From positions 68,723-132,722 of the IMG/VR virus record IMGVR_UViG_3300028048_000072: a stretch of 64,000 nt of DNA; one strand, 5' to 3'. This document shows positions 10,264-60,491 of this stretch, one piece after another (the first letter of the stretch is position 1; each line of letters begins with the position of its first letter). Origin of the DNA: a virus (lineage: Duplodnaviria; Caudoviricetes). The notes beneath the pieces are model-generated. The model worked only from the letters and a program-made list of their open reading frames with translations. It had not been told where the DNA came from and did no database searches. Both the position numbers and the translations under genes were made by a program.

Positions 10264-12399
10264 ATGAACGAAACAAATGTCAAGATAAAGAAAATCAAGA
10301 AAGTTATGAGTGAAACAAATTTTATTGGTGTCGATTTGAGTAAAGGTAGTGATGTAGGAACTTGTAATGGAAAAGTTACACCTAAAGTTGTAAAAAAAGT
10401 AAAGAAGATTGTAAAAGATGAATCTACCATGAAATCTGATGTTGTAGACAATTCTCCTTGCGATTTCAGTGATTTTGAAAGTGGTAAAGTTGAAGTATCT
10501 AGTTCTGCTAATGTGCCGACTGTGAAAAAGGTGAAGAAAGAAATTAAAAAAATTGTAAAAGATATTAAAGACGAAATATCTAATTCTACAGATGTAATTT
10601 CTTTTGTACGAGTCATTGACTTGAAAAGAGAAGATTATTCAGAATTTACTGAAGAAAAATATCCATACGGTTTGACCTTCCTAGATTTTGAGGTGTTCAA
10701 GTATGATTGGTTGGTAGTTTTGATAGATGTTATTGAATTAAAAGAAACTATAATTGTAAACGATAGAAAAGCGTTGTTGAAGTTCTATATGTCTCATCGT
10801 AACAAATTACACGCTTCATATAACGGTCGCTCTTACGATTCTACAATATATAAAGGAATTATTCTTGGTATGAATCCTAAAGAATTGAATGATAAATTGA
10901 TTGTAGAAAGATTAAAACCTTTTCAAATTAGTAATAAATTTAAAGAAGTTGAATTATTAAATTATGATATAATGACTAAAATAGAATCATTAAAGGTTCT
11001 TGAAGCGTACCTACAAGATTCTATATATGAATCAAAAATTTCTTTTGACATTGATAGACCTCTTACAATGGATGAACTTGAGGAAACGATTCGCTACTGC
11101 CATAACGATGTTGTGGAATGTAAAAAAGTTTTTCTTTTAAGACACGATGATTTTGAAGTTAGTATGGGTGTAATTGAAATGTTTAATTTACCTATATCAA
11201 ATATAAATCTTACAAATGCACAATTGACTGCTAAAGTTTTGGAATGTGAAAGACCAAAAGAAGATAGAAAAGATGAATTTAATTTGTGGGTAGTTGATAC
11301 AGTAAAACTTGAAAAATATAAAGACGTTATCGATTGGTTTATGAATCCTGCAAATCATGATTATAGTAAATTTTATGTTCGTGATGTTTGTGGTATGAAA
11401 CATAAATTTGGTTGGGGTGGATTACATTCTGTGAATGATGAACCGATGATTATCAACGAACATGTACAAGATTGGGATGTGGCTAGTCTTTATCCCTCAC
11501 TTGATATTCGATACGAGTTGCTAACTAGAAATTGTAAACATCCTGAAAAATTTAAATTTATTTATGACGAACGCATTCGATTAAAGAAAGCAAAAGACCC
11601 TAAGAACAAATGTTTGAAGTTGATTTTAAATTCAACTTATGGAATTTGTAAAGATAAAAACAGTTCTGCTTACGACCCTTTGATGTCAAACATGACTTGT
11701 CTTACAGGACAACTTTTAATTCTTATGTTAATTGAATGGATTGAACCTTATGTAAAAATATGGGTTCAAACCAATACGGACGGAATCCAGTTTGTTGCTA
11801 AAGATGGTTGTCAAGAAAAGATAGAAAGTTTAATTCACAAATGGGAAGGTGTATCAGGTATGAATATGGAAGTCGAAAATATTTTGAAAACTTACCAATC
11901 GAACGTCAACAATTATACCTTCCAACTAGATGATGGGTCGTTTAAAAGAAAAGGAGCATATCTTAAAAAAGCAACTCCACTAGACGCTGATTTACCAATT
12001 GTCAATGAAGCAATGTTTAATTTCTTAGCATATGGAAAAAAAATTGAAGATACTATAAATGAATGTAATGATTTATACATGTTTCAGAAAGTGTATAAAA
12101 TTTCATCAAACTACAAATATGGTTATCATAATGGCAAAGAAATTAACGAAAAGGTGTATCGTATTTTTGCTTCTAATGATTTGAAAGATACATGGTTAGG
12201 AAAACAGAAAGAAAAAGGGGGAACGATTGAAAAATTTGCAAATTGTCCAAATAACTGTTTTCTTGAATTGGGAGATATACATGGTAAAAAATGTTCAGAA
12301 TATCCTATGTTGAATAAACAATGGTATATTGATTTAGCACAAGATAGAATTGAAAAAGGTTATCATTTGGATTGTAAACCAAGTATTTTTGATTTTTAA
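10264..12399 (+). CDS. family B DNA polymerase with 3'-5' exonuclease and Lys-rich N-terminal extension
   Basis: Exo motifs DFE, YNGRSYD, YCHND; Pol motifs DVASLYPS, KLILNSTYG, NTDG. Confidence 0.9.
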   Translation: MNETNVKIKKIKKVMSETNFIGVDLSKGSDVGTCNGKVTPKVVKKVKKIVKDESTMKSDVVDNSPCDFSDFESGKVEVSSSANVPTVKKVKKEIKKIVKDIKDEISNSTDVISFVRVIDLKREDYSEFTEEKYPYGLTFLDFEVFKYDWLVVLIDVIELKETIIVNDRKALLKFYMSHRNKLHASYNGRSYDSTIYKGIILGMNPKELNDKLIVERLKPFQISNKFKEVELLNYDIMTKIESLKVLEAYLQDSIYESKISFDIDRPLTMDELEETIRYCHNDVVECKKVFLLRHDDFEVSMGVIEMFNLPISNINLTNAQLTAKVLECERPKEDRKDEFNLWVVDTVKLEKYKDVIDWFMNPANHDYSKFYVRDVCGMKHKFGWGGLHSVNDEPMIINEHVQDWDVASLYPSLDIRYELLTRNCKHPEKFKFIYDERIRLKKAKDPKNKCLKLILNSTYGICKDKNSSAYDPLMSNMTCLTGQLLILMLIEWIEPYVKIWVQTNTDGIQFVAKDGCQEKIESLIHKWEGVSGMNMEVENILKTYQSNVNNYTFQLDDGSFKRKGAYLKKATPLDADLPIVNEAMFNFLAYGKKIEDTINECNDLYMFQKVYKISSNYKYGYHNGKEINEKVYRIFASNDLKDTWLGKQKEKGGTIEKFANCPNNCFLELGDIHGKKCSEYPMLNKQWYIDLAQDRIEKGYHLDCKPSIFDF

Positions 12400-12422
12400 C
12401 AAATTAACTATTTTAGTAATTG

Positions 12423-12502
12423 AACGATTACAGATAGGTGTGCGAAACCTTAGAAAGTAAAGAAATCGACTCCTTTTACTTTCATATCTGCAATCGTTTT
12501 TT
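12423..12502 (+). ncRNA. putative three-way-junction small RNA antisense to the 5' UTR of the downstream endonuclease gene
   Basis: P1 12423-12436/12485-12498; loops GTGCGAA (12440-12446) and TCGACTCCT (12466-12474); T-tract; TAACTAT at 12405. Confidence 0.65.
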
Positions 12503-12588
12503 ATTTAATTATTTTATTTATAAATATTAACTATTTATTATGTGTTATTCGCACTAGCACAAAAAATTATTTCTATAGGAGTCGAATT

Positions 12589-13734
12589 ATGACAAAAGAA
12601 GAAGCAACTCAAAAATATTATAATTTAGTGGAATTATGTAAAATTGAAGATGTTGATTGTGAAAAATACAACATGCATCATATCGAACCAATTTTTACAT
12701 TGAAAGAAAAATACAATGTAAAACGAACTAAGGAAATTAGATATAATAAGAATATTGATTTTGGTGAAGAAATAAAATGTTCAATTCCGCATCACATAAT
12801 GTTACATTTTTATTTATGTTTTATGTTTGATAGAGGAACGACATTATATAAAAGTGCAAAATCTTCATTTTGGTTCATTACTAATAAAACATTAACGCAA
12901 AGTATAGAATCTTTAACAGAAGATGATGTTAAAAATATAGGTAAATATTGTGAAGAGTTGAAGAAAACTAATTGGACGGATGAAGATAAGAAAAATTATA
13001 GAAAAACTAATAAACGAATAGAAGCCGACAGAGAATATAGAAGAAAAAACAAAGAAAGATTAGCAAAACAACATAGCGAATATTATAAAGAACATAAAGA
13101 AGAAAGAATGGAATATTATGAAGAATGGAGAAGTAAAAATGAACCTAGATTGAGGGAATATAGAAAAGAAAGAAATCAAATAATAAGAAATCGCTTGTGT
13201 GTAGACCCAAGATGTATTATTAGTAATAAAATAAAATCAAAAATAACAAATTGGAGAAATTTGTCTAGTTGGATGGATAAAAATCCTCAAAATGAATTAG
13301 TAAAAGAATTTAAATCATCTAATGATTTTGCTGATTATTATCTTATTAAAGATGAAAATAACAATTATATATACGATATTGAATTAGCGGAATCTATCTT
13401 AAAAACAACGACAAATAAAAAATTTTCAAATATATTAAATTTTAAAATACAAGGAGTTAAAAATCCTAAAGATAGTAATGTTCGTTTATGTATAGACCCC
13501 AGATTTGGAAAAACGATAATTATATCTAAATACAAAAGTATAAATTGGAATTCAGAAATTACAGAATGGAGAAATTTGTATAATTGGTGTAAACGTAATT
13601 CTGATAATGAACTGATTGAAAATTTAAAACCCAATGAATTTGCAAACAAATATTTAATAATTGATTCAGAAGGAAATTACATTTATGATGAAGAAACAGC
13701 ATTAAAAATTATTAATAAAGAAAATAATGATTGA
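12589..13734 (+). CDS. free-standing HNH-like endonuclease with duplicated C-terminal domain
   Basis: HHIEP...HIMLH; charged helical repeat region; two RLCxDPR...WRNL...YLI repeats. Confidence 0.65.
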   Translation: MTKEEATQKYYNLVELCKIEDVDCEKYNMHHIEPIFTLKEKYNVKRTKEIRYNKNIDFGEEIKCSIPHHIMLHFYLCFMFDRGTTLYKSAKSSFWFITNKTLTQSIESLTEDDVKNIGKYCEELKKTNWTDEDKKNYRKTNKRIEADREYRRKNKERLAKQHSEYYKEHKEERMEYYEEWRSKNEPRLREYRKERNQIIRNRLCVDPRCIISNKIKSKITNWRNLSSWMDKNPQNELVKEFKSSNDFADYYLIKDENNNYIYDIELAESILKTTTNKKFSNILNFKIQGVKNPKDSNVRLCIDPRFGKTIIISKYKSINWNSEITEWRNLYNWCKRNSDNELIENLKPNEFANKYLIIDSEGNYIYDEETALKIINKENND

Positions 13735-13794
13735 TTTTATCCTAAAAATATTATACAATCTTTCTTATTACAAGAAAATAAGTGGGAAAATTGC

Positions 13795-15201
13795 ATGAAA
13801 GATGAAACTTTAAAAATTTCTATTTTGGAAAAACAGATTATTAAAAGTTGGTTGAATGACCCGTCTTTAATGATTGAGGATGACATTTTTTGTTCTGAAA
13901 CTGCAAAAGAATTACAGTTTATTTTATTAAATCTTAGGGATGAAAATAAAGATTTTACAGAAGAACACATTTTGTCTGAAAGTGTGGAATATGTAAATAA
14001 AGATACTTTAGATTCCATAAATGAAGTAAATTATCAAGAAGATAAAATAGAAGATTATGTTCAGAATTTAAGAAAAAAGAATATTTTGTTTTCATTTAAA
14101 AATGAACTTCTTCACGAAATAAATTCTGATGATAGTGATTTTGAAAAAGTAATTTCACTTCAATCATCCTTAGATGAAGCAATCAGTAAAATTGAAAATC
14201 CAAAAGAAGATGAAGGAATGTCTTTTAGTGATATGATTGACACTCATATCGAAACATTAAAAGACAGAAAAAACAATGTAAGTGTAAGTACGGGCGATTA
14301 TTTGTTAGACAGACTTGCAAAACCTACGGCAGGGATATGGACTATACTTGGGTATAGTGGTTCATGTAAATCAACTTTTGTTGCTACACAATTAAAGGCT
14401 AGAATTTCAAAAAGATTACCTACAGTTTATTTTAATACAGAACTTTCACAAGAAGGTGTAATGGATGGTTTGTTGTCATCTTTAATTAAAGAAACATATT
14501 ATGATATTCAAGGTATGTATAATGATGATGAACATATTGATTTTGATACAATTATTGAAAAATGTAAGTATTTGGCAGAACATTCTGATAAATCAAAATT
14601 CGCATATTTTCCAAATTCTACAGTAAGTGTAAATGATATTAAAAGATTTTCTCTTATTCAAAGAAAGAAAATGGGATTAAAGAAAAATGAATTATTGTTT
14701 GTATATGTAGACCTTTTATCTATGGTAAAAGAATTTCAAGAAAATACTAGAGGTTCTAACCGTTCAGATGTCATTTTACAAGCATTGAATAAATTGAATG
14801 ATATTGCTTTAGCAAACAATTTATTGATTATTGGTACTGTACAAGCGAAACGTATGCCAACGGGAATTAAGATTAATAAAGAAGAAGATATTATGAAATT
14901 TCAATTGGATGCTAGTGCGATTAGGGATTCAGGTGGATATGAAGAAAGAAGTCGTTGTATTTTTAGTATTTTTAATCCTTACAATATTGTTCGCAAAAAC
15001 CCATGTAGTGAAGTTATTAAAGCAATAACAGAACCAATAATTTATGTTAAAACTCTAAAAAATACATATGGCGAAGTTGGAAAAGAAGTATATTATTATT
15101 TCGATGCAGATTATAAAAATCTTTATCCTTATGAAGGTGAATTACCTAACTATAGTTTAGATGAAGAAGATGAAACGGAGAATGTAGAAAATGACGATTG
15201 A
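13795..15201 (+). CDS. DnaB-like replicative helicase
   Basis: Walker A GYSGSCKST, FNTE, YVDLL, TVQ, IRDSG motifs. Confidence 0.82.
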   Translation: MKDETLKISILEKQIIKSWLNDPSLMIEDDIFCSETAKELQFILLNLRDENKDFTEEHILSESVEYVNKDTLDSINEVNYQEDKIEDYVQNLRKKNILFSFKNELLHEINSDDSDFEKVISLQSSLDEAISKIENPKEDEGMSFSDMIDTHIETLKDRKNNVSVSTGDYLLDRLAKPTAGIWTILGYSGSCKSTFVATQLKARISKRLPTVYFNTELSQEGVMDGLLSSLIKETYYDIQGMYNDDEHIDFDTIIEKCKYLAEHSDKSKFAYFPNSTVSVNDIKRFSLIQRKKMGLKKNELLFVYVDLLSMVKEFQENTRGSNRSDVILQALNKLNDIALANNLLIIGTVQAKRMPTGIKINKEEDIMKFQLDASAIRDSGGYEERSRCIFSIFNPYNIVRKNPCSEVIKAITEPIIYVKTLKNTYGEVGKEVYYYFDADYKNLYPYEGELPNYSLDEEDETENVENDD

Positions 15202-43072: not shown

Positions 43073-44770
43073 TCAATTTTCAATAAATCCTAAATAATTT
43101 TTCCAATATTTTGAAGAAACATCACTAAAGGATTCAAATTTAGTTATCTGTGTTTTAGTATATATTTTAGATGGGTCTAAATTCATATCCTTACATATAG
43201 AATAAACTACTTTAGGACTACAATAAGAATTCAATGAAGTCCCTAATGCAATATTTTTACCTTCAGATTTAATATCTTTATTTACATTTGCTCTTTCAAG
43301 ACTTTCCTTAATTCTTTCAACTTTAGATTTTGCCTTTTCAAGTTGAGTACGATATTTTTCTTCTGATGCTTTAAGTCCTTTTTCCTTACAATGTTTAATT
43401 TTTACAGAAAGATATTTTTTCTTATTCTTAAAATTTTCTTCTTCAAGAGAAAGATTCTTTTTCAATGTGGAAATTTTATCAGACATTTTTTCCATGTTCT
43501 TTTTAAAAGATTCTTCGCCTTTTGCAGTTGTACCTTTCTGATGATTGAGATAAAGAGCAACATCTGCGTTTGCCTTTACGAAAATCTGTTTCTTTTCAAA
43601 ATCTTTCATATTTGATTTAATCTTTGCTTTATTAATCGATTCACATAAAACTGCAGAACCAATTGCACTTCTGAATGTTTTTGGACTAGCATCTTTGTAA
43701 ATAGATTTGATAAATTTTGAAACATCGTTACTTGAAATAGAAAACAATTCATCATTAGGTTTCTTATCTTTAATCTGATTTACAAAGTGATTATAAATAT
43801 CTCTAGGGATTTTATCAGTTTTAGAATAAGGAACACTGTCTTTTCCTAAAAAATCCAATTTGAGAATATAATTATCATTCTTTTCAAATACTTTAATATT
43901 CTTTACTTTAAGAGTTGTTACACCTACAGTATCTGCTTGGAATTCTTCTCTTTCATTACCGATACGGATAGCATAAGTTTTAACCATCCATGTTGCTAAT
44001 GCAATTTCACGATTTCTCTTAAATTTTGAATTCAATTCTTCTTTAATTTTTTCATCAAATTCTGTAAAGTGTCTAAGAAGATTTAATGCTTTTTCGTGTT
44101 TATGTTCCGTATTTTTAATCTGTCCTTTGAATGTTGCAGATGGTCTAATTGATTTTGTAATAGGTGGAAATCCACCACTTAATCTAATTTTATAAGAAAC
44201 AATCCAATCTACATCTTTTTTAGAAACAACGTTAAATCCCTTTTCTATAAGTTTTTTCTTACATTCTTCATCACCAATTACGTTGATTGTAATATCTTTT
44301 TCTGTAGTAGGATATTTAAAACAGAACATTCTTTTATCACCACCACGTACAATCAAAGCGTTCATTTCTTCAACCATATATCCCGCTAACTGTACTTTTT
44401 CACCATCAATAATTGCGTATCCATATTCTTCTTTTTCTGATGATTTTATCTTTTCAATTTCTTCTTTATGTTCTTTATTATAAATTTTCTTTTCTTCTTT
44501 TCTTCTTTCACAATCAGATTTCATTTTAGAACAAAGTTTTTCAAATTCATCCATATTATTTTTAATATCAACGGAAGAATCAATTTCTTTCATACCATTT
44601 ATAAAATTTGTGAAAGAATATTTGTTATCATAAGTATATTGTCTATCAGTATTTGCCCATCTGTAAATATATCTTTCTGCCATTGGTGAAAGTTTTTTAC
44701 CTAAAAATTCATAACCAAAATATTCAGTCTTTGGTATTTTACATCCGTTATAAGAAATTGATTTATACAT
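43073..44770 (-). CDS. DNA topoisomerase IB, long eukaryote/archaeal type
   Basis: RIGNE, FLGKDS, KTFRS, LNHQK, coiled-coil linker, ALGTSLNSYCSP. Confidence 0.9.
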   Translation of the reverse strand: MYKSISYNGCKIPKTEYFGYEFLGKKLSPMAERYIYRWANTDRQYTYDNKYSFTNFINGMKEIDSSVDIKNNMDEFEKLCSKMKSDCERRKEEKKIYNKEHKEEIEKIKSSEKEEYGYAIIDGEKVQLAGYMVEEMNALIVRGGDKRMFCFKYPTTEKDITINVIGDEECKKKLIEKGFNVVSKKDVDWIVSYKIRLSGGFPPITKSIRPSATFKGQIKNTEHKHEKALNLLRHFTEFDEKIKEELNSKFKRNREIALATWMVKTYAIRIGNEREEFQADTVGVTTLKVKNIKVFEKNDNYILKLDFLGKDSVPYSKTDKIPRDIYNHFVNQIKDKKPNDELFSISSNDVSKFIKSIYKDASPKTFRSAIGSAVLCESINKAKIKSNMKDFEKKQIFVKANADVALYLNHQKGTTAKGEESFKKNMEKMSDKISTLKKNLSLEEENFKNKKKYLSVKIKHCKEKGLKASEEKYRTQLEKAKSKVERIKESLERANVNKDIKSEGKNIALGTSLNSYCSPKVVYSICKDMNLDPSKIYTKTQITKFESFSDVSSKYWKNYLGFIEN

Positions 44771-49535: not shown

Positions 49536-49577
49536 ATTCACTCCTAGTACATAAGAAAATAGTTAGATGATATTAAA

Positions 49578-49904: not shown

Positions 49905-50561
49905 AATGATTTACCCCTTTCTCATTAAGATACTTTGATTATATATAATTGTATATCGAATGTCAATTCAAATTTAAATTATTTTTAACAAAATTTTTCG
50001 CAGTAATCCATTTTACATTATACTTTTTCGCAATACTATAAATTGATACATGATTGTTTATCATTATTTCAATTTCAGTTTTATATGGTGTTAATTTATA
50101 TACTTTAGGTTTTTCACCTTTTCTTCTTCCAATATGTTGTCCGTTTGCCATTCTCATTCTTAATGCTTCCCTTGTTCTTTCTGAAATTCTTTGTCTTTCT
50201 GTTTGAGCAACTATAGCATAAACAACACACATCATATTAAATTCTAAAGTACCACTAACTAAATTTTCTTTAATCAAATGTACTTCTACTTTCTTATTCT
50301 GTAGCATCTCTAATGTAATTAAAGTATCAATAATTGTTCTTCCTAATCTTGATAATTCAGACACAATTAAAACATCACCTTCTTTTAAAGAATTACATAA
50401 AATTCCTAAAACTCTCTTTTCTCTAGGTACAGTACCACTAATTGTTTCATTTACAAATTTGTCCAATTTGAACTTCTTGTAAGAACAATATTCCTTTATA
50501 AAATATTGTTGACTTTCCACTGTCTGAAAATTTGTACTAACTCTAGTGAACTACCTACTCC

Positions 50562-51872
50562 CTAAAGGGAGTAGGCTTCGTGCTTCTCCGACTGTGGGTT
50601 AGAAGATTCACCATAATTATGGTTGCTACATTTAAGAGCCGAATCGACTAGAGCCTTCATCTCCACACGCTTATAATTGGTACGTTCCATACCTATGTTA
50701 TTTTTATAAAACCAAAGCATATTGTAAGTTGCGTGTAAATCTCTATCCATAGAAACCCCACAACCGCAGACAAACATTCTATCTTTCACAGTCAATTTAT
50801 CATGAAACACACCGCAATTTGTGCAGAGTTTTGTCGTGGGAACAGACTTTGCAAGAATCGATGTTTTAGAATTTTGTTTAAGTTTTGATTTAACTCTACC
50901 TAAAACAGAATGTTGAACTTTCTTACCATGACCATTTTTCTGCCAATTTGAAAGTTGTTCATCTTGAATAACAATGTTTTCAAATTCATTCAAATGAGCA
51001 ACAATCTTATTAGCCAAATCACCTTTTTGATTAGAAAGTTTTCTATACGCTTTTCTTAGTTGTTTGACTGTTTTAATGTAGTTCTTTGAGCCTTTCTTCA
51101 TTCGTCTGTTTAGTTTTACAGACAGTTTCTTGATACGCTCACTTTCTTGAACTTGTACATTAATCTTTTCTCCATTTGAAAGAGTAAAAGAAGTCTCACA
51201 ACCAAAATCTATAGCAACGGTTTCACCGTTAGTTTTCTTTTTGTTTATTTTTTCTTTATTTGTGAATGTCGTTATTGACACATAATATCCGCAAGGAGTA
51301 TTTAATAATTTGAAATCTGCATAATCAAGGTCTTTATTTATAAACTGATTCAACCCATTTACTACAATCGTTCCTTTTATACCTTGTAATTTAATTCGTT
51401 TTGAGGAAACAATTTTATGAGTTACTCCATATTGTTTATATGTTACAGATTTTAATTCTTTACAAAATTTTAATCTTCCAACTTTATAACCTTTCTTTTT
51501 CAAAGACGATAAAGTTTTAATGTTTGCACAAATTTCATCAAGAATTGTCTGTTTGATACTTGCAGGAATGTATTGTAATTTATATTGAGATAAATTTTTA
51601 TCTTTATCTGAAATTGTAATTTCTTTAATTTTCGTATCAAAATTCCAAATTTTATTGTTTTCTTTATCTTGGTTAGACCAATTAAGAATATGATTTTTAT
51701 ATCTTTTTCCTTCTACAAAAATCATTTGTAATTGTTCTTTTTGTAATTTTGAAAGTTTATTCTCTTGAATTTTTATTTGGAAAACACGACAAACTTGATT
51801 CTGTCTTTTCTTTCTAGTTTCAGACATAGTTTGAGAAATTTGCTTATTTTTCTTCAAATTTTTGTTTTCCAT
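50562..51872 (-). CDS. tnpB: TnpB RNA-guided nuclease
   Basis: RuvC AIDFG, IVIQDE, DRDLHA; zinc finger CTNCG...CGCG. Confidence 0.9.
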   Translation of the reverse strand: MENKNLKKNKQISQTMSETRKKRQNQVCRVFQIKIQENKLSKLQKEQLQMIFVEGKRYKNHILNWSNQDKENNKIWNFDTKIKEITISDKDKNLSQYKLQYIPASIKQTILDEICANIKTLSSLKKKGYKVGRLKFCKELKSVTYKQYGVTHKIVSSKRIKLQGIKGTIVVNGLNQFINKDLDYADFKLLNTPCGYYVSITTFTNKEKINKKKTNGETVAIDFGCETSFTLSNGEKINVQVQESERIKKLSVKLNRRMKKGSKNYIKTVKQLRKAYRKLSNQKGDLANKIVAHLNEFENIVIQDEQLSNWQKNGHGKKVQHSVLGRVKSKLKQNSKTSILAKSVPTTKLCTNCGVFHDKLTVKDRMFVCGCGVSMDRDLHATYNMLWFYKNNIGMERTNYKRVEMKALVDSALKCSNHNYGESSNPQSEKHEAYSL

Positions 51873-51964
51873 AATTTCCTTTATTATACTAGTTACAGTA
51901 TAATTTGTCAATATAGATAGTTAAAATAATTGACAATTATACTATAAATATATAAAATATAGTT

Positions 51965-52369
51965 ATGAAACAGAAATATAAAACTTTAAATCATGAAAAA
52001 TTCAAGATTCGATATCACATAATATTCTCAACAAAATATAGAAGAAAATGTCTGAATGAAATAAGAACGGATTTATTAAATTCTATGAAAAGAGCAGAAT
52101 CATTACAAAATAAATGGAAAATCGAAATTATGGAAATAGATAAAGACCATATTCATTTCTTGATTTCCGCTACACCTACAGATTGTATTTATAAAATAAT
52201 TCATTCTTTAAAACAAATTTCAACTTACGATATGTGGAAATTACATCATGATTGGTTATCGAAGTTTTATTGGAAACAACATCATTTATGGACTAGAGGA
52301 TATTTCTGTACGACAATAGGAGAAATTTCAGAAGAAAAAATTAAACATTATATTGAAAATCAAGGATAA
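51965..52369 (+). CDS. tnpA: IS200-type Y1 (HUH) transposase
   Basis: YHIIFSTKYRR, DHIH, LWTRGYF, YIENQ. Confidence 0.95.
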   Translation: MKQKYKTLNHEKFKIRYHIIFSTKYRRKCLNEIRTDLLNSMKRAESLQNKWKIEIMEIDKDHIHFLISATPTDCIYKIIHSLKQISTYDMWKLHHDWLSKFYWKQHHLWTRGYFCTTIGEISEEKIKHYIENQG

Positions 52370-52516
52370 TGTGGCAATTCACATAGCCACCCTTTAGGGT
52401 GGCATCTATCTTGCCACTTTTCTGTATAACCAATTATCATTTTAAACAAACCCCTTTTTGTAATTATTTTTTTAGATTTAATTACTTTATCAAAATGTTT
52501 AAGTTTAATCAATAGG

Positions 52517-54577
52517 TTAGGCTAGTTTTAATCCCAATTTATCATAAATTTCATCACCAAATGTTTTTAATGAATGTTGAGATTTTTCAAATTCTAATTG
52601 TTCATCAAAAATATATTGTGGGTCTAATGTTCCAAATCTATCTGCAAGTGTACAACATCCTACAACGCTATCGACAACATCTTTCCCAAAATACCCCAAC
52701 CTGCTTGTAGTCCAATCTTCATTCTCAAAATCACACCATTCGCCTTTTATATGGTCAATTTTATTATGTAAACCTTTTCCATCTTGTGTTTTAGAATAAA
52801 TTAATGCTTTATAATTATTCTTTGCTATAATATTTCTACCCATTTTTACACGTCTTTGAGTTAATGCAGAAACATGACTTAAATAAGGTTCAATAGGGTA
52901 GTCTACAGATAATTTAATACAGTCAATTCCAATTCGATTTAAATATTGAATTGTGGTATCACTTTGGAATCCATCAAGAGAAACTTTACCAAATTTTATT
53001 CCACCATAAACTGACATATCTCTTATTAAATATCTAAAGGCATCCATATTTATTTCTTCTTTTGTTGCTAGAATAGGCAAACTGAAATCAACAATATACA
53101 CTTTTTCACCTTTAGTGTTTTGTTCCAAATGACACATAGAAATACAAGCCATATCATGTGTTTTTGCCAAGTCTATTGAAGCAAATCTAACTGCAAAAGG
53201 ATTTCTATAAAAAGTATAATTACTTCCTACACCACTATAAACAAATAATCCGCTGTTTTTTACAATATCCCATAAAAGATTTTCAGACGGCAAAGAAGTT
53301 GGTGCATGATGAAACATTAAGAAGTTTTTAAGATTTTCTGTAAACGCATCTTCAATAACATCATAATTAGTGATAAGTTTAAGGTCATTACCACCACTAG
53401 GAACAGCACCATAGTCTTTTAAGATTTTAGATGGTGTATCCATAGCAACATCATATAAATCTATAGGCATATCTATTAATTCGTCATCGTTATAATTTTT
53501 CCTTTCTTCTTCACTAATAATCTTACAAGGTTTTGCAACATTACCTTTAAACATTGTAAATACTTTTGAATGGTCTTTTTGATAAATTGGAAACAAATGT
53601 TCTTGAATTTCCCATTTTTTATGATTTGAATAAAGAATATTTTTATCATCTTTATGTTGTGCAATCCATTGGTCTGCCAATCCTTCCATACTATTAGGAG
53701 ATGAATCGATAATGATTGTAGTTTCTGTATTATTATAACCAAAACGAGATGCTACACGATTTATACCGTCTGTTAACATTCGCATAACTCTTTCTTCAGG
53801 CATTTGTTCACACAAAAATGCCATTTCAGTTACAGAAAAATTTAAAATTGTTCTTCCGACCAAATCTGACGGTTCACAAGCAACATCAAAATAAACATCA
53901 CCAATTCTAATGATAGAGTTACCGTTTGAAGTATTACACCAAAGAATTTTCCCACTATTAAGATATTCGGGGTTGGTCATATCTCTTTCATATCTTAATT
54001 TATGAAACATCGTGGAGTTTTCCATAATAGAAATCATCGGTTTTAATACCAAGTCATAACAAGTTGATTTTGTAAAAGAAACCGAAGTATCAGTTAATCG
54101 TGTAGAACGAGCCAATTTAAAATATTGTTTAGGATTTCGCAAAGATAGCGTATAAACTGCACGAAATAATTTTAACAAACCAACAAGCGTACTCTTTCCA
54201 AAACCGATACAATCGTATAATACATCTGTATTTTTACCATTCATTGGATTAAAAAATGTTAGAAAATTTTCTTTAATATGGGGATATAAATCTTCTGACA
54301 TTGAGCCAATCCATTTATCAGTTAAAAATTCTTCGGGTGTAACTTTAAAAGTATGATTTATTTTCCATGAGTTTTCTAACAAATTACCCTTTTCGTTTTC
54401 AGATAATTTTTCATCATGTAAAATTACTTTCATTGCAGAATTAATATTATCTATATCACTCGCATCCAACATTTTAAAAACATCTTGTAAGTAACTCAAA
54501 TCTTCTTGTGGATGTGCTATAACATCTTTACATATATCTACCAAATTTTTATCTACATTCATTGTCCAATCTTCCAT
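52517..54577 (-). CDS. terL: terminase large subunit
   Basis: IGFGKST Walker A, IDSSP coupling motif, SIDLA...D, DGFQS, KDVVDS nuclease acidic residues. Confidence 0.8.
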   Translation of the reverse strand: MEDWTMNVDKNLVDICKDVIAHPQEDLSYLQDVFKMLDASDIDNINSAMKVILHDEKLSENEKGNLLENSWKINHTFKVTPEEFLTDKWIGSMSEDLYPHIKENFLTFFNPMNGKNTDVLYDCIGFGKSTLVGLLKLFRAVYTLSLRNPKQYFKLARSTRLTDTSVSFTKSTCYDLVLKPMISIMENSTMFHKLRYERDMTNPEYLNSGKILWCNTSNGNSIIRIGDVYFDVACEPSDLVGRTILNFSVTEMAFLCEQMPEERVMRMLTDGINRVASRFGYNNTETTIIIDSSPNSMEGLADQWIAQHKDDKNILYSNHKKWEIQEHLFPIYQKDHSKVFTMFKGNVAKPCKIISEEERKNYNDDELIDMPIDLYDVAMDTPSKILKDYGAVPSGGNDLKLITNYDVIEDAFTENLKNFLMFHHAPTSLPSENLLWDIVKNSGLFVYSGVGSNYTFYRNPFAVRFASIDLAKTHDMACISMCHLEQNTKGEKVYIVDFSLPILATKEEINMDAFRYLIRDMSVYGGIKFGKVSLDGFQSDTTIQYLNRIGIDCIKLSVDYPIEPYLSHVSALTQRRVKMGRNIIAKNNYKALIYSKTQDGKGLHNKIDHIKGEWCDFENEDWTTSRLGYFGKDVVDSVVGCCTLADRFGTLDPQYIFDEQLEFEKSQHSLKTFGDEIYDKLGLKLA

Positions 54578-54640
54578 TTATATTATAAAAAATTATTTCC
54601 TTTTTATATTATAAATAGTAATTTATATACATTTTAAACA

Positions 54641-54865
54641 GACGGCTTGATTGAACAGTGGCATAATGGGTCTTTTGCTTCTTATGTTTGGACTTTCTTG
54701 GTTCAAATGGAAACATTAAATTATTGTATACCTAATTTTTTCAAAGGAATATATGCAGGAGATTCTGCATTTGAATTAACGTGTACTAAAAATAAAGATT
54801 CATTAAAAATACAAAATATTGTTCATGTCGCTAACGTAATCGATTTGTATATAAAAGGTTATTAA
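54641..54865 (+). other. silent tail-fibre C-terminal cassette A
   Basis: DGLIEQW...IKGY*; no RBS; in-frame TAA just upstream; 23-bp repeat at 54635-54657. Confidence 0.85.
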
Positions 54866-55125
54866 TAGCCTTTAACGCTCCAAGTAATCTGCGAAACTAT
54901 GATATAATTTGTGGCAGGGGTAGAATTGCCTAGTTTAAATCCTGTTGTTGCTAAAGTCTCATCCTTAACATTCAATACACATAATCCTCCGTAAGCATTA
55001 ACAGCATTAATTCCTGATATTGAATATCTAGTATTACTCATTACAATTGGTAATACTACATTGGCGGAATATTGAGTTTGGGCACTAGACGGTCGAGATT
55101 TCCCCCATTGTTCAATTAAACCGTT
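54862..55125 (-). other. silent tail-fibre C-terminal cassette B (absent from the ORF track)
   Basis: NGLIEQWGKSRPSS...WSVKGY*; stop overlaps the cassette A stop in TTAA. Confidence 0.85.
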
Positions 55126-55134
55126 CAGTTAGAA

Positions 55135-56709
55135 TTAATAACCCTCCACCTCATAAGTAAATAAAGCAGGGTTAAAGGCTTGTCCACTATTTCCTCGTAT
55201 TTGAAATCTTATTTTCATATTTGTTTTTGTCTTATCATAAGAGTTAGCACACAAAGCAATATCTCCATGTGAGTTAAACTCCGATATATCGAGCGACACA
55301 GAATAAGTGGTATTTTTGAAAGCGATAGGAAAAATAAAAGTCCCTCCAAATATTCCACTTCCAGAATAAGACTGTTTTATAAATCCGTCCGCATTGACGG
55401 TATATCTATTTGAAGCGTCTGCATAATTACACAAAACGGGGTTTTCCATAATCAACCAATATGTACCCGTATACATTAATGTTAAACTTGTGTATGCATC
55501 GAATACTTTATTAGGATAATTAGCATCATAATTTCCACCCGCAAATAAATGACTTCTTAATGCGAAAAGATTTGAATCAACGTATCCAACATCTGTACTT
55601 AATATTCCTGCTCGTCTTGCAACAATTTGTTTTTTATTAGAATCACTTTCACCATTAAATTTTAAATAAACACTAGATATTTCATTACTTGATTGTAAGG
55701 CATTAGCAAATGTAATTTTTAATGTAGTACCCGCTACGATATTAACATCGGGTAAAGTAATATCAAAAATTTTAGATGTATCAGAAATATTATCAGAATT
55801 AGCATCTATACAATAATAACCATATGTTTCTAATGTTGATTTTGTTACATTATTAATTTTATTAAGAGTTACTGCATCATCTGCAATTTTAGATGTAACT
55901 ACTACACCGTCTACAAGTTCACTATTCAAAGATGGATTATTTGAATAAATATTTTGAATATAAGTACCTTCGATTGTAGAAGGATTTGATGGTAATGTAA
56001 TTACTGCTAAAATTAATTTATTTTGTGGACATTTTGGAACAGTAGGTGTTACGCTATCATCACCTTTAATAATGCTAATAGATGACGATTCATCAATAAC
56101 AACTAAATCTTTTCTTGAATTAGTAACATTTAAATCTGAATATTGTAATATATAAGGTGATGATAATGTTACTAAATTTCCATTAATAAAAGCAGAACCT
56201 TTATTTATGATAATTTTACTAGAATCTGTTGGATTATACATAACATGGAAATTTGGATAATCACTCTTAAAATTTTCATAATATTCTCTTGACCAACTTT
56301 TTTCACTAACATCAAAATTCTGTAAAACACCTAATGTATCATAAATTGCTCTACCAAAAATTAAATCTGTAGGTTGAATATTGCTAGAAGATACACCTAA
56401 GAAATCCATATAATTATCTTCAATATTTAACCAATTAAATCTACCTACAATATAATTGTTTGCTTGTGAAACCGATACAGAAACATCAGATGAAGTTTCT
56501 AATCTAGTACCCGTTTCAACGGAAGTATCTTCAAAGAAACAAAGAAAAGGAGAAATTGAAACGGTAGAATCTGTTAATTTTGTTAATTCTCCACCTTTAA
56601 TAATTCCTTTAGGTATCAAATTGTACATAATTTTATTAAATCCTTCAGATGTACCTTCTTGTTTAAAATCAAAAGTTAATGTCTGATTACCTAAATTTGT
56701 TGAACCCAT
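55135..56709 (-). CDS. tail fibre / receptor-binding protein with exchangeable C-terminal ~85 aa
   Basis: structural N-terminus; C-terminus DGFIKQ...FPIAF...EGY* homologous to the four flanking cassettes; TAACTAT at 56744. Confidence 0.8.
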   Translation of the reverse strand: MGSTNLGNQTLTFDFKQEGTSEGFNKIMYNLIPKGIIKGGELTKLTDSTVSISPFLCFFEDTSVETGTRLETSSDVSVSVSQANNYIVGRFNWLNIEDNYMDFLGVSSSNIQPTDLIFGRAIYDTLGVLQNFDVSEKSWSREYYENFKSDYPNFHVMYNPTDSSKIIINKGSAFINGNLVTLSSPYILQYSDLNVTNSRKDLVVIDESSSISIIKGDDSVTPTVPKCPQNKLILAVITLPSNPSTIEGTYIQNIYSNNPSLNSELVDGVVVTSKIADDAVTLNKINNVTKSTLETYGYYCIDANSDNISDTSKIFDITLPDVNIVAGTTLKITFANALQSSNEISSVYLKFNGESDSNKKQIVARRAGILSTDVGYVDSNLFALRSHLFAGGNYDANYPNKVFDAYTSLTLMYTGTYWLIMENPVLCNYADASNRYTVNADGFIKQSYSGSGIFGGTFIFPIAFKNTTYSVSLDISEFNSHGDIALCANSYDKTKTNMKIRFQIRGNSGQAFNPALFTYEVEGY

Positions 56710-56743
56710 AGTCTAAAACTCCTTTATCTTTATTTATAATAAA

Positions 56744-56750
56744 ATAGTTA
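56744..56750 (-). promoter_or_regulatory. TAACTAT putative late promoter (representative copy, before the tail fibre gene)
   Basis: same or 1-mismatch motif upstream of baseplate, terminase, lysis-like, Dps and Hsp20 genes and the sRNA candidates. Confidence 0.6.
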
Positions 56751-56771
56751 ATTGTATATACAATCTAAACA

Positions 56772-56996
56772 GACGGCTTGATTGAACAATGGGGGACATT
56801 TAATTATTCTAATATTGCTAGAAATTTTTTAATAGTATATACGACAATTCCTATGTTTAGTTGTGTCTTTAATTCAAACAGTGCAGATAAACCTCAATAT
56901 AGAGAATTTCCTAGAGCAATTTCTGAAACACAATGGAATCAATTATATGGAGATGCTTCCATTTCTAATGGAACATGGATAGCCAAAGGCTATTAA
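56772..56996 (+). other. silent tail-fibre C-terminal cassette C
   Basis: DGLIEQWG...AKGY*; repeat at 56766-56788. Confidence 0.85.
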
Positions 56997-57256
56997 TATC
57001 CAATACACATAACTCCTATATATTGAGATGTTACATAATACTCATAATGTAACACATCAAAAGTAGATTTTGTTTTATTTTGTACTATTAGCACAGTTCC
57101 TTTCTTAGTTGATATACTGTTAAAAGTATCTTCACAGTTATCTTCTGTAACTGCAACGAAATATCTTGTATTAGAATACTCTACAAATAAATTACATGGA
57201 GTAACTACATCAGCTATAGAAGCAATATACGTTTGCCATTGTTCAATCAAGCCGTC
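56993..57256 (-). other. silent tail-fibre C-terminal cassette D
   Basis: DGLIEQW...IGY*; repeat at 57240-57262; stop overlaps cassette C stop. Confidence 0.85.
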
Positions 57257-57321
57257 TGTTTAAAATGGATATATTCAATAAAAAAATAAAAGGTTATTCT
57301 AAAACAGAATAACCATTTAAA

Positions 57322-57992: not shown

Positions 57993-60491
57993 TTAATCAC
58001 CCAAATGTATAACTCGATTTTTAATATCGCTCAAACGACCTTGGTTTGTATTCATTGAATTTTCATTGATACCTCTTGAAATTTGACCTAGATAGCCACA
58101 CAATCGCACGAAATATGATAATTTTTTTTGATTTTTATTTAAACATTTTGGACATTGACATAATAATTTTCCATTATCATTAATAATGCTCAATTCACCT
58201 TCATATCCACATTCATCACAAGAACCTTCATTTCTGAAATTAAATTCTGCATAAAGAATATTATCATACATGTATTTCATCAATTGAAGAATTGCTTTTT
58301 TATTTGTTACCAATGACGTACCACATTCAACATAAGATACTGCCCCACCTTTTGAAAGAGCAAGATATTCACCTTCGAGTTTGAGTTTAGTAAACGCATC
58401 GATTTTTTCTGCAGGATTTACATGATAACTATTACAAACATAATCATGGTCTGTAACTCCAACAATTAATTCACCATCTGCGAGTTTTTTTAATGCTTTT
58501 GCAAATTTTTCAGTTGTACTTTCCTCGGGAGTTCCATAAATAGAATAAGGAATTTTATCAGCAACTTTCCATTCAGTACATTTATCATTCATATATTTCA
58601 TGATTTCTTTAGAAAGTTTAATACCTTCTTTAGTAGTATTAGACTTACCAATTAAACACATACAAGTTTCGTATAATCCAACATATCCCAAAGAAATTGT
58701 AGTGTAATCAACGTCATTTTCAAGCATTGAATCAAGATTATCTTGAGGGTTCAATCTAGCAAGTCCACCATTCATCCAAAGAATAGGAGCATTTTCTGCT
58801 CTAATCTTTTTAATACTCTTATGTCGTTCTTGTAATCCCTTACGGCAAATTTCAAGTCCATAATCTAATACTTCATAAAAATCTCTATTATCCAATTTTG
58901 ATTTTAATGCTACATAAGGGAGATTAATTGTTACTACACCTTGATTCCATCGACCATATGTTTTAGGTTCTAATGTTTTAATTGAATATTCATTTTTTTC
59001 TGAATCAAAAGAAACTGTTAAAATTCTAGCAGTATTACCAAGATAATTATAAACTATCTTCCAATCTGCAAATTCAATATCTCCACTTTCTTTAGAATTT
59101 CTATCTAATTTTTTACAAACAGTTTCCCACAATTCTTTCAATGATTTTGGTTCAAGAGAACGACAAATATATTTTAAATTAGGTTTATCAAGAATTTCCC
59201 AATTTATTCCATAGTTAAGAATTGATGAAATCTCTGCATGTTGAATTTTTCCATCTTTTTCCACATAAGTTTTCTTTCCCCAATATGGAGTAAGGAAACT
59301 TCTGCATCCCATATTCGGGATGATTTGACCTTCTTTTGCTTCACGACATTTCTTTTCTGAAAGAATATCAGGTTGCATACGTTTTACCTCACAATCACAT
59401 GCCAATTTATTCAGATAATAATATGGGTCTGATTCCTCAACATTTAATCCGTCACAAATCCAATAAAGAAGTTTTGGAAATAATGGTGAAATGATTCTAC
59501 CTTTTCTGTCTTTTACACCTTCAGTTCTTTGTCTTAAAACTTCTTCGATAATCATAACAAGGTCTTTTTGTTCTTGTTTTGTCATCGCTTCTGCTAAACA
59601 AAGATTTACACTTAAAAAAGGAGTTTGACCATTAGCACTACTCATTGTCAATGTTTGATATTGGAATGTTTGTATACCACGAGTAATTTCTTTTTTTAAA
59701 TCTTCATCAATAAATTTTTGCATTTGCTCTTCTGTTAAAAATGAAGAACATCTATCATAAATTCTTTTTGTAATTGTTTCTCTTGATTTCTGTAAAGCAT
59801 AAAGTGTTGATGCCCATGAATATGTAGCACCACCATATTGACTTGAACTTACATGTAAAGTTATTTGTGCTAAATGATTACATGCCGTACTAAATGAATG
59901 AGCAGAATCTATTTTTACATCTCCCATAGCAAAATTATTTGTAAACATATCAAATGTATTCATCAAACAACAATTAGACATATTCTGTAATGGTGAATAA
60001 TCCATATCATGAAAATGAATCATTCCAACATCATGTTCTTTTGTTACTTCTTTAGGTAACATTTTTCTACCGATAGTTTTACATTTTGTACCTGCAATAT
60101 AATCACGTTGTGTACTCAATAATGTTGGTTTTTTATTCGCATTATCCCCACTAACATCTTCATTAGTAGAATCACAAATTGAAATGATTTTTAATTCATC
60201 ATCATCATACTTTTTATCTTTCTTTTTATTATTTCTATATAAAACATATGCTTTTGCAACATCATATTGATTTTTATTCATCAATGCTTTTTCTACAAAA
60301 TCATGAATTGTATTAACATCGATTGTTGAATAATTTTTAATTTTTTTCTGCACAAAATCTACAACTTGATTTATTTTTTCATCAGTCATTCTTTTTTCTT
60401 TTTCTACAGAATTATTTGCCAATTTAACGGCATTAAAGATTTTACTTAGATGGAAATCTTCTTCATTTCCATTACATTTTCTTACTTTCAT
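57993..60491 (-). CDS. nrdD: anaerobic (class III) ribonucleotide reductase with ATP cone
   Basis: HFHD, NCC, GQTPF, MGCRSF, NSYH, RLCGYL glycyl-radical motif. Confidence 0.95.
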   Translation of the reverse strand: MKVRKCNGNEEDFHLSKIFNAVKLANNSVEKEKRMTDEKINQVVDFVQKKIKNYSTIDVNTIHDFVEKALMNKNQYDVAKAYVLYRNNKKKDKKYDDDELKIISICDSTNEDVSGDNANKKPTLLSTQRDYIAGTKCKTIGRKMLPKEVTKEHDVGMIHFHDMDYSPLQNMSNCCLMNTFDMFTNNFAMGDVKIDSAHSFSTACNHLAQITLHVSSSQYGGATYSWASTLYALQKSRETITKRIYDRCSSFLTEEQMQKFIDEDLKKEITRGIQTFQYQTLTMSSANGQTPFLSVNLCLAEAMTKQEQKDLVMIIEEVLRQRTEGVKDRKGRIISPLFPKLLYWICDGLNVEESDPYYYLNKLACDCEVKRMQPDILSEKKCREAKEGQIIPNMGCRSFLTPYWGKKTYVEKDGKIQHAEISSILNYGINWEILDKPNLKYICRSLEPKSLKELWETVCKKLDRNSKESGDIEFADWKIVYNYLGNTARILTVSFDSEKNEYSIKTLEPKTYGRWNQGVVTINLPYVALKSKLDNRDFYEVLDYGLEICRKGLQERHKSIKKIRAENAPILWMNGGLARLNPQDNLDSMLENDVDYTTISLGYVGLYETCMCLIGKSNTTKEGIKLSKEIMKYMNDKCTEWKVADKIPYSIYGTPEESTTEKFAKALKKLADGELIVGVTDHDYVCNSYHVNPAEKIDAFTKLKLEGEYLALSKGGAVSYVECGTSLVTNKKAILQLMKYMYDNILYAEFNFRNEGSCDECGYEGELSIINDNGKLLCQCPKCLNKNQKKLSYFVRLCGYLGQISRGINENSMNTNQGRLSDIKNRVIHLGD

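Follow-up and report, generated by a model that had tools for sequence, protein, structure and literature searches.

A probable tail-fiber shufflon in a clade of T4-like phages, with a constant region that appears to be invertible and a copy that is probably locked

We examined the tail-fiber locus of a phage known from the IMG/VR record IMGVR_UViG_3300028048_000072, which is 132,722 bases long; the window, meaning the whole stretch of DNA analyzed here, is its final 64 kb (G+C 26.9%) and carries a T4-like gene set that includes a baseplate wedge protein (phrog_219), a family-B DNA polymerase, an SbcC-like nuclease, NrdD, and NrdG. The locus most probably represents a multiple-inversion system, or shufflon, that belongs to a clade of T4-like phages and is driven by a small serine invertase of the Mpi-like kind, and the copy in this genome is probably locked on a single fiber tip, E; we put this reading at roughly 80%.

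Organization of the Fiber Locus

The fiber gene consists of a 440-amino-acid (aa) constant region, K, followed by the expressed C-terminal tip E (Table 1). Four silent tip cassettes accompany it as two tail-to-tail pairs, A/B downstream of the gene and C/D upstream of it, between the fiber start and nrdG. Each silent cassette has an in-frame TAA ahead of it, opens with (T/L)(D/N)GLIEQW, and ends in GY and a stop codon, and the stops within each pair overlap in TTAA (54862-54865 and 56993-56996). These elements had been read from the letters alone in a first-pass annotation, which described an expressed terminal domain of about 85 aa, four start-less alternatives in tail-to-tail pairs, an identical opening of A, C, and D, and degenerate copies sharing ACGG at B and at the expressed junction. 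All of them were recovered here, the expressed domain as an 84-aa tip and the identical opening as an exact 22-mer (AAACAGACGGCTTGATTGAACA) that occurs three times in the 64 kb (54636 and 56767 on the plus strand, 57240-57261 on the minus strand), against 0.00 expected and none in 100 shuffles. Across four genomes, seven of eight cassette pairs overlap in the palindrome TATTAATA, and GY with a stop ends nearly all tips.

In the mechanism that we propose, recombination sites of alternating orientation would divide such a locus into cassette-pair segments, each bounded by two right arms, and body segments, each bounded by two left arms. The fiber body segment would comprise the constant region together with its own 57-nucleotide (nt) promoter and ribosome-binding region. 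Flipping a cassette pair would change which of its two tips faces the gene, and flipping the body would turn the 3' end of the gene away from one flanking pair and toward the opposite one.

Comparison with Relatives

The case for inversion comes from close relatives. Three proteins (P0002, P0003, and P0004) share 94, 91, and 79% identity with the fiber over exactly its first 85% and then diverge from it between ...YADG and LIEQ. Their contigs (L005, L006, and L007), found through a protein collection and exact look-ups, encode flanking proteins that are 82-99% identical to those of the window. L006 is collinear with the window in its flanks (the homologue of a 686-aa gene, the invertase, nrdG, and nrdD), and between them two segments are inverted in place: window positions 55371-56803, which hold K and its upstream region, and, separately, 56755-57272, which hold the C/D pair. 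The ends and overlaps of the alignments fall within the sites. The fiber gene of L006 accordingly occupies the other strand and continues into a D-type tip, behind which a C-type cassette stands silent, and the two layouts are two site-specific inversions apart (C by D, and the junction by the upstream site). L005 and L007 form a simpler pair, with Z expressed and T silent in the former and T expressed and Z silent in the latter, a difference of one inversion of the Z/T pair. The first-pass annotation had proposed that tips are swapped by inversion, that reaching the upstream cassettes requires flipping the constant region together with its promoter, and that cassette order in relatives would bear on this; the rearranged orders, the inverted body between collinear flanks in L006, and breakpoints at the sites agree with it on all three counts.

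An alternative that we consider improbable is that these arrangements arose by homologous recombination or module exchange at the DGLIEQW and GY motifs, with the resolvase serving some other role. T4-like phages recombine very actively, tips are clearly traded horizontally between unrelated phages (see below), and the window and L005 differ by the gain or loss of one cassette pair, all of which such exchange would accommodate. It does not, however, produce the in-place inversion of segments, and it is hard to square with site orientations that strictly alternate in L005, L006, and L007, or with a repeat that stays conserved for 16 nt of non-coding DNA ahead of silent cassettes, a stretch under no constraint from a protein motif. 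Homologues of the invertase in other phages (40-61% identity, in other phage types) also adjoin simple, one-sided invertible tip segments, and two of these systems carry repeats containing CAGACGG.

It is more improbable still that the fiber gene is served by the downstream cassettes alone, the C/D pair being either an idle duplicate or a product of misassembly. The spacing of the cassette-pair repeat in the window, 2131 nt, could be taken to point that way, but C and D share no more than 28-32% identity with A and B, and L006, where a D-type tip is fused to K, contradicts such a reading. Exact repeats in the modules reach 21-28 nt at most, too short to mislead an assembler, so the assemblies are unambiguous; the Logan assembly uses k=31, above the length of every exact repeat. 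An assembly from ENA (L009) is also 100% identical to the window over 20.5 kb, in the same arrangement, although it may derive from the same sample and so may not be independent.

Other searches returned little. Contigs L010-L012 show no sign of population heterogeneity, as none of their ends falls at a site. The phages collection held no DNA relative beyond a 56-nt chance-like match, and no relative emerged from scans of viral_contigs (IMG/VR) with the exact site, the fiber protein, and the site-pair pattern, or of metagenome_contigs (JGI) with the site-pair pattern. A distant fiber homologue (L017) lies directly after wedge and Laminin-G genes, with neither sites nor invertase there; given this, and the one-sided segments of other phages, the two-sided form looks confined to a close clade.

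Recombination Sites and the Region Upstream of K

Six-frame scanning of the window, L005, L006, and L007 mapped 19 tips and 19 sites, and alignment of the sites gave a consensus of about 34 bp, ATATnCAnTnTA-nnnn-GACGG-nTTnATTGAACA. The repeat around the 22-mer reaches about 38-40 nt, including the upstream TATATACA, and is 95% complementary over 40 nt (I2). No further site lies elsewhere in the 132.7-kb record. Every site falls precisely where the 440-aa constant part of the fiber, a baseplate-module protein, gives way to the C-terminal tip (about 75-88 aa). Each tip has its opening (GLIEQW) encoded in the right arm; the left arm encodes the closing residues of the constant region (GYTIYAD) or, ahead of a silent cassette, is non-coding. 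Because the left arm is conserved in non-coding DNA as well, over 16 nt in front of silent cassettes, a protein motif alone is not a sufficient explanation.

The alignment also narrows the place of exchange. The four positions left of GACGG are never exchanged in the 19 sites, being TGCG with K and AACA or similar with silent arms, and T-type right arms diverge from position +7; exchange would therefore fall within GACGG(N)T. Dyad symmetry is strongest when centred on the GA of GACGG (score 0.51, against at most 0.39 elsewhere; CAATC versus GATTG), and we infer a crossover within GACGG, probably at the GA. In the window, E stands in tandem with B as an extra tip and breaks the alternation of orientations, and no other of the 19 sites is as degenerate as its junction site, J(E), which has decayed in both arms.

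The 57-nt region upstream of K is nearly invariant in the four loci and is always joined to K, whatever cassette adjoins. It contains the heptamer TAACTAT, of which there are 21 copies in the window (as YAACTAT; for example at 49559, 41746, 18323, and 12405) against 33 expected, so that it is rarer than chance. Nineteen of these copies are on the coding strand, in most cases directly ahead of a gene, and this strand bias and position make it look like a promoter element. A T4 late promoter motif, TATAAATA, is also present upstream of K; it is unenriched in the window (29 copies versus 22 expected), and we did not rely on it.

Table 1. Features of the fiber locus and of the interrupted invertase gene, in window coordinates.
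Feature	Position	Strand	Remarks
Fiber gene	55135..56709	-	524 aa, with the 84-aa tip E at its end
Constant region K (aa 1-440)	55390..56709	-	79-94% identity in relatives bearing other tips
K upstream region	56710..56771	-	Shine-Dalgarno AAAGGAG; TAACTAT at 56744-56750; left arm of site C; moves with K
Expressed tip E	55135..55389	-	84 aa, DGFIKQ...EGY-stop; PF21882
Silent cassette A	54638..54865	+	75 aa including leading T; no start codon, in-frame TAA ahead; no Pfam match
Silent cassette B	54862..55128	-	88 aa; complete Gp53-like_C domain
Silent cassette C	56769..56996	+	75 aa; 97% identity to silent C of L006
Silent cassette D	56993..57259	-	88 aa; 85% identity to the tip expressed in L006
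Site A	54624..54661	+	Left arm TATATACATTTTAAACA, core GACGG, right arm CTTGATTGAACA
Site B, degenerate	55105..55140	-	Core AACGG; left arm matches consensus at 9/16; right arm good
Junction site J(E)	55373..55405	-	Dyad elements degraded: CCGTC for CAATC, TATAA for GATTG
Site C, perfect	56755..56792	+	From alignment of sites
Site D, perfect	57234..57273	-	From alignment of sites
Serine invertase, 3' part from codon 6	49963..50545	-	T-RVSTNFQ...
Serine invertase, first 17 nt	52424..52440	-	MIIGY-T; ribosome-binding site upstream
IS200/IS605-family element	50546..52423	-	1878 bp, inside the invertase gene
tnpB of the element	50562-51911	-
Y1 tnpA of the element	51965-52369	+

The Invertase and Its Interruption

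A serine recombinase gene (PF00239, 4.6e-23) is found beyond one intervening gene, at a distance of about 2 kb from site A, and it is the sole candidate, since no other serine or tyrosine recombinase (no PF00589 match) was found in the 132.7-kb record. Intact 199-aa versions with the RVST motif (MxIGYTRVST...) are present in L005 and L006 and are 96-98% conserved. Among PDB structures it matches gamma-delta resolvase (1e-15) more closely than Gin (2e-8). The best curated family is Mpi (NF009949), with an alignment that is full-length (1-196 of 199 against 1-197 of 203) and a score of 163.1 bits that falls below the equivalog cut-off of 272, and the closest named database proteins are Treponema proteins of the 'Mpi family' at 42-43% identity. 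We infer that the clade's invertase performs the inversions.

In the window this gene is split by an insertion sequence (IS) that fits the IS200/IS605 family (PF01797 at 1.8e-29, PF01385 and PF07282, with hairpins at both ends). The insertion follows TATAC in codon 6 of the invertase, and the right end of the element stops at TTCAC. As a result, the codon for the catalytic Ser9 is separated by 1.9 kb from the start codon and ribosome-binding site; removal of 50546-52423 restores the reading frame. The DNA past the right end of the element, where the TnpB guide would lie, is invertase coding sequence, and intact sibling alleles would therefore be a homing target. A second ENA contig (ERZ27256887) has an identical IS-split invertase and, according to its gene table, a 516-aa gene at the position of the fiber on the opposite strand.

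State of the Switch in This Genome

Simulated inversion indicates what such loci could do. The window has four invertible segments, L006 three, and L005 five, and every tip can be reached in at most three inversions. With all sites active, L006 would have 16 arrangements and 4 reachable tips, L005 would have 384 and 6, and the window, with five sites, would have 64 arrangements and 5 tips (A and C in one step, B and D in two). If site B is dead, the window retains 16 arrangements and 4 tips; if J(E) is dead, its 16 arrangements present only one tip, and the gene is locked on E. We consider that this copy is probably locked on E, because the invertase is split by the IS, J(E) is degraded in both arms, and the core of site B is changed. 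The earlier description of a five-way switch thus probably does not carry over to the present genome, in which the sole recombinase is interrupted, J(E) is degenerate, and site B reads AACGG for GACGG.

The opposite case, which we regard as unlikely, is that the five-way switch is still active, with the invertase restored by precise IS excision or supplied in trans by a co-infecting sibling phage or the host, and with J(E) able to recombine. IS200/IS605 elements do excise precisely, excision of this one would restore the frame, and A, C, and D are perfect sites. Recombination has evidently taken place at T-type right arms whose dyad element carries two mismatches, and the strain of ERZ27256887 appears to be flipped at the fiber. 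On the other side stand the 1.9 kb that cut Ser9 off from its start signals, the unmatched degeneracy of J(E), and the identical arrangement of the ENA assembly L009, with the same proviso about its sample. An equally good explanation of the flipped IS-bearing strain is that homing or recombination carried the IS into it.

Several points weigh against the interpretation of the locus as a shufflon now probably locked. The evidence for inversion is comparative and comes from four contigs whose fibers share 79-94% identity, and the window and L005 differ in addition by one gain or loss of a cassette pair that was not site-specific. The K promoter is assigned on the basis of a motif. The case for GA as the crossover dinucleotide depends on a weak dyad, and if the exchange were at CG or GG, site B would be compatible. 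Finally, the 516-aa gene of ERZ27256887 is assumed from the gene table to be the fiber gene; its apparent flip beside the same IS may mean that inversion took place without this invertase, or that the IS spread later by homing or recombination, and the locked state is to that extent unproven.

Tip Domains

The tips are related to PF21882, the Gp53-like tail-fiber C-terminal domain, for which the gathering cut-off is 24.9 bits. Four exceed it: B (32.2 bits), E (28.1, scanned alone), L005_Y (35.0), and L006_b (27.9), with passing matches spanning positions 4-84 of 84. C (19.4 bits) and D (13.2 bits) score below it, and A matches neither PF21882 nor any other Pfam family. As B and E fill the domain end to end, one cassette appears to amount to one entire tip domain. 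The 19 tips of the four genomes fall into 15 types with mutual identities of 19-41%. Orthologous pairs are much closer, with C and D at 97 and 85% identity to their L006 counterparts and the L005 and L007 versions of Z and T at 84 and 92%.

Tips have clearly been swapped horizontally among unrelated phages. Cassette C shares 69% identity with the C-terminal part of an unrelated 707-aa protein from another phage; a search for a K-C fusion protein found none, the C-like tip occurring only on that protein. A tip like E is a silent cassette in another phage, and E is therefore part of a common tip pool. We would expect the tips to set host range. Structural comparison gave weak leads: a match of PDB 4mtm to the tip at only E = 0.34, an AlphaFold model of tip B from a 16-tip alignment with pLDDT 56, and ESM Atlas matches that lean toward fiber-type proteins.

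Comparison with Known Inversion Systems

The inversion systems Min of p15B, Gin of Mu, Cin of P1, and Pin of e14, described in PMC6109161, likewise use a small serine recombinase and crossover sites at the boundary between constant and variable parts of the fiber, and in Min several alternative 3' ends are similarly chosen by inversion. In Gin-type systems a Fis-dependent recombinational enhancer also takes part. They differ from the present system in several respects. Their constant part lies outside the invertible DNA with all cassettes downstream, whereas here cassettes flank both sides and the constant part and its promoter appear to be invertible; the cassettes here are a single domain with no chaperone gene; and this invertase is nearer the Mpi family than Gin. 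Gin-type sites are imperfect dyads of 26 bp whose asymmetric crossover core, 2 bp long, is the same in all partners; at the sites studied here, the best centre of a weak dyad is the GA of the invariant GACGG, and the exchange was bounded by comparison of contexts. Those systems belong to temperate phages or plasmids and have an intact recombinase gene, whereas the present one belongs to a T4-like phage with no integrase in 132 kb and has the 1878-bp IS in its invertase.

Two other systems also act on phage receptor-binding proteins through start-less C-terminal cassettes and short sites, with arrangements that differ among relatives or populations. These are the Rin shufflon of Bifidobacterium prophages, which uses a tyrosine recombinase and 11-bp sites (PMC6109161), and the BV01-like tail-fiber shufflon (PMC13596623); each has its cassettes on a single side, flanked by the constant gene and the recombinase. 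The R64 shufflon (Rci) similarly has several segments that invert independently and supply one protein with alternative C-termini, there under a tyrosine recombinase, a class with no PF00589 match in this record. Among the described fiber switches that we found in the literature (Gin, Cin, Min, Rin, and BV01-type), none has two-sided cassettes, and each combines a fixed 5' gene with a downstream invertible region.

Mpi of Bacteroides fragilis flips promoters at many dispersed loci, not coding segments. It is the best-scoring family for this invertase over its full length, albeit below the cut-off, and its action in trans is mentioned in PMC6109161. The nearest logic is found in the vsa locus of Mycoplasma pulmonis, where, in the outline of Bhugra et al. 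(1995) given by PMC4534519, a promoter and 5' coding part are joined to silent 3' genes by site-specific inversion. There too the expressed 5' end moves, and here K is found in both orientations with different tips. That locus encodes bacterial surface lipoproteins and is not of phage origin, and its sites and proteins are unrelated to those of this system. Its recombinase is the tyrosine recombinase HvsR. Tail-fiber shufflons are thus well known, and it is the swiveling constant segment in a T4-like phage that is new.

Neighboring Genes and the nrdD Segment

Between the shufflon and the invertase lies a gene for a 686-aa protein (52517-54577) that has no match in Pfam, PHROG, or NCBIfam; it is 82-95% conserved in the relatives, and its L006 homologue is split into 125 and 553 aa. 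Elsewhere in the window, 43073-44770 encodes a 565-aa protein with eukaryote-type topoisomerase IB domains (Topoisom_I_N, Topoisom_I, and Topo_C_assoc), assigned from precomputed Pfam annotation of relatives. NrdD of L006 (13051-16398) has 1115 aa, against 832 aa in the window (57993-60491), owing to an insertion of about 850 nt (L006 14356-15210), and an HNH gene lies between nrdD and nrdG in L006; together these look like an intein or intron and homing-endonuclease traffic.

The L005 locus is organized differently, with the fiber module upstream of nrdD and a lone cassette pair at the window's locus; nrdG is absent from it. Transposition was considered for this gene order and was set aside for an account in which one extra cassette pair would lie between the terminator (window 60579) and the nrdD promoter (window 60569), and three legal inversions would restore the order of the window. 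In L005, nrdD with its promoter and terminator (11985-14667) stands between two inverted left arms (sites T and P), which would make nrdD an invertible, re-orderable body segment. A broader and more speculative idea, to which we give little weight, is that the invertase and its sites make up a general means of permuting segments, in which any DNA between two left arms can be flipped or reordered, the module colonizes intergenic sites, and the IS acts as a spreading, reversible lock. If so, nrdD of L005, an essential-type gene for anaerobic ribonucleotide reductase, would change place and direction together with the fiber gene across the 384 arrangements, and an IS with a TnpB guide to the uninterrupted invertase allele would freeze host range in its current state.

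Implications

Inversion switches in tail fibers are a textbook means by which phages hedge their host range. Using the fiber body as a swivel between two cassette banks would double the number of cassettes within reach of short inversions, and it would need only alternating sites and a self-contained promoter inside the flipping segment. As this large T4-like phage gives no sign of lysogeny, switching would occur during lytic replication. The clade also offers a natural series, with 4-, 5-, and 6-tip versions, a version that has swallowed nrdD, and IS-silenced versions, comprising 15 tip types in four genomes. Such a series may be useful for studying how these systems grow, spread, and decay, as well as for building, in laboratory hosts, phages whose receptor-binding tips can be switched.

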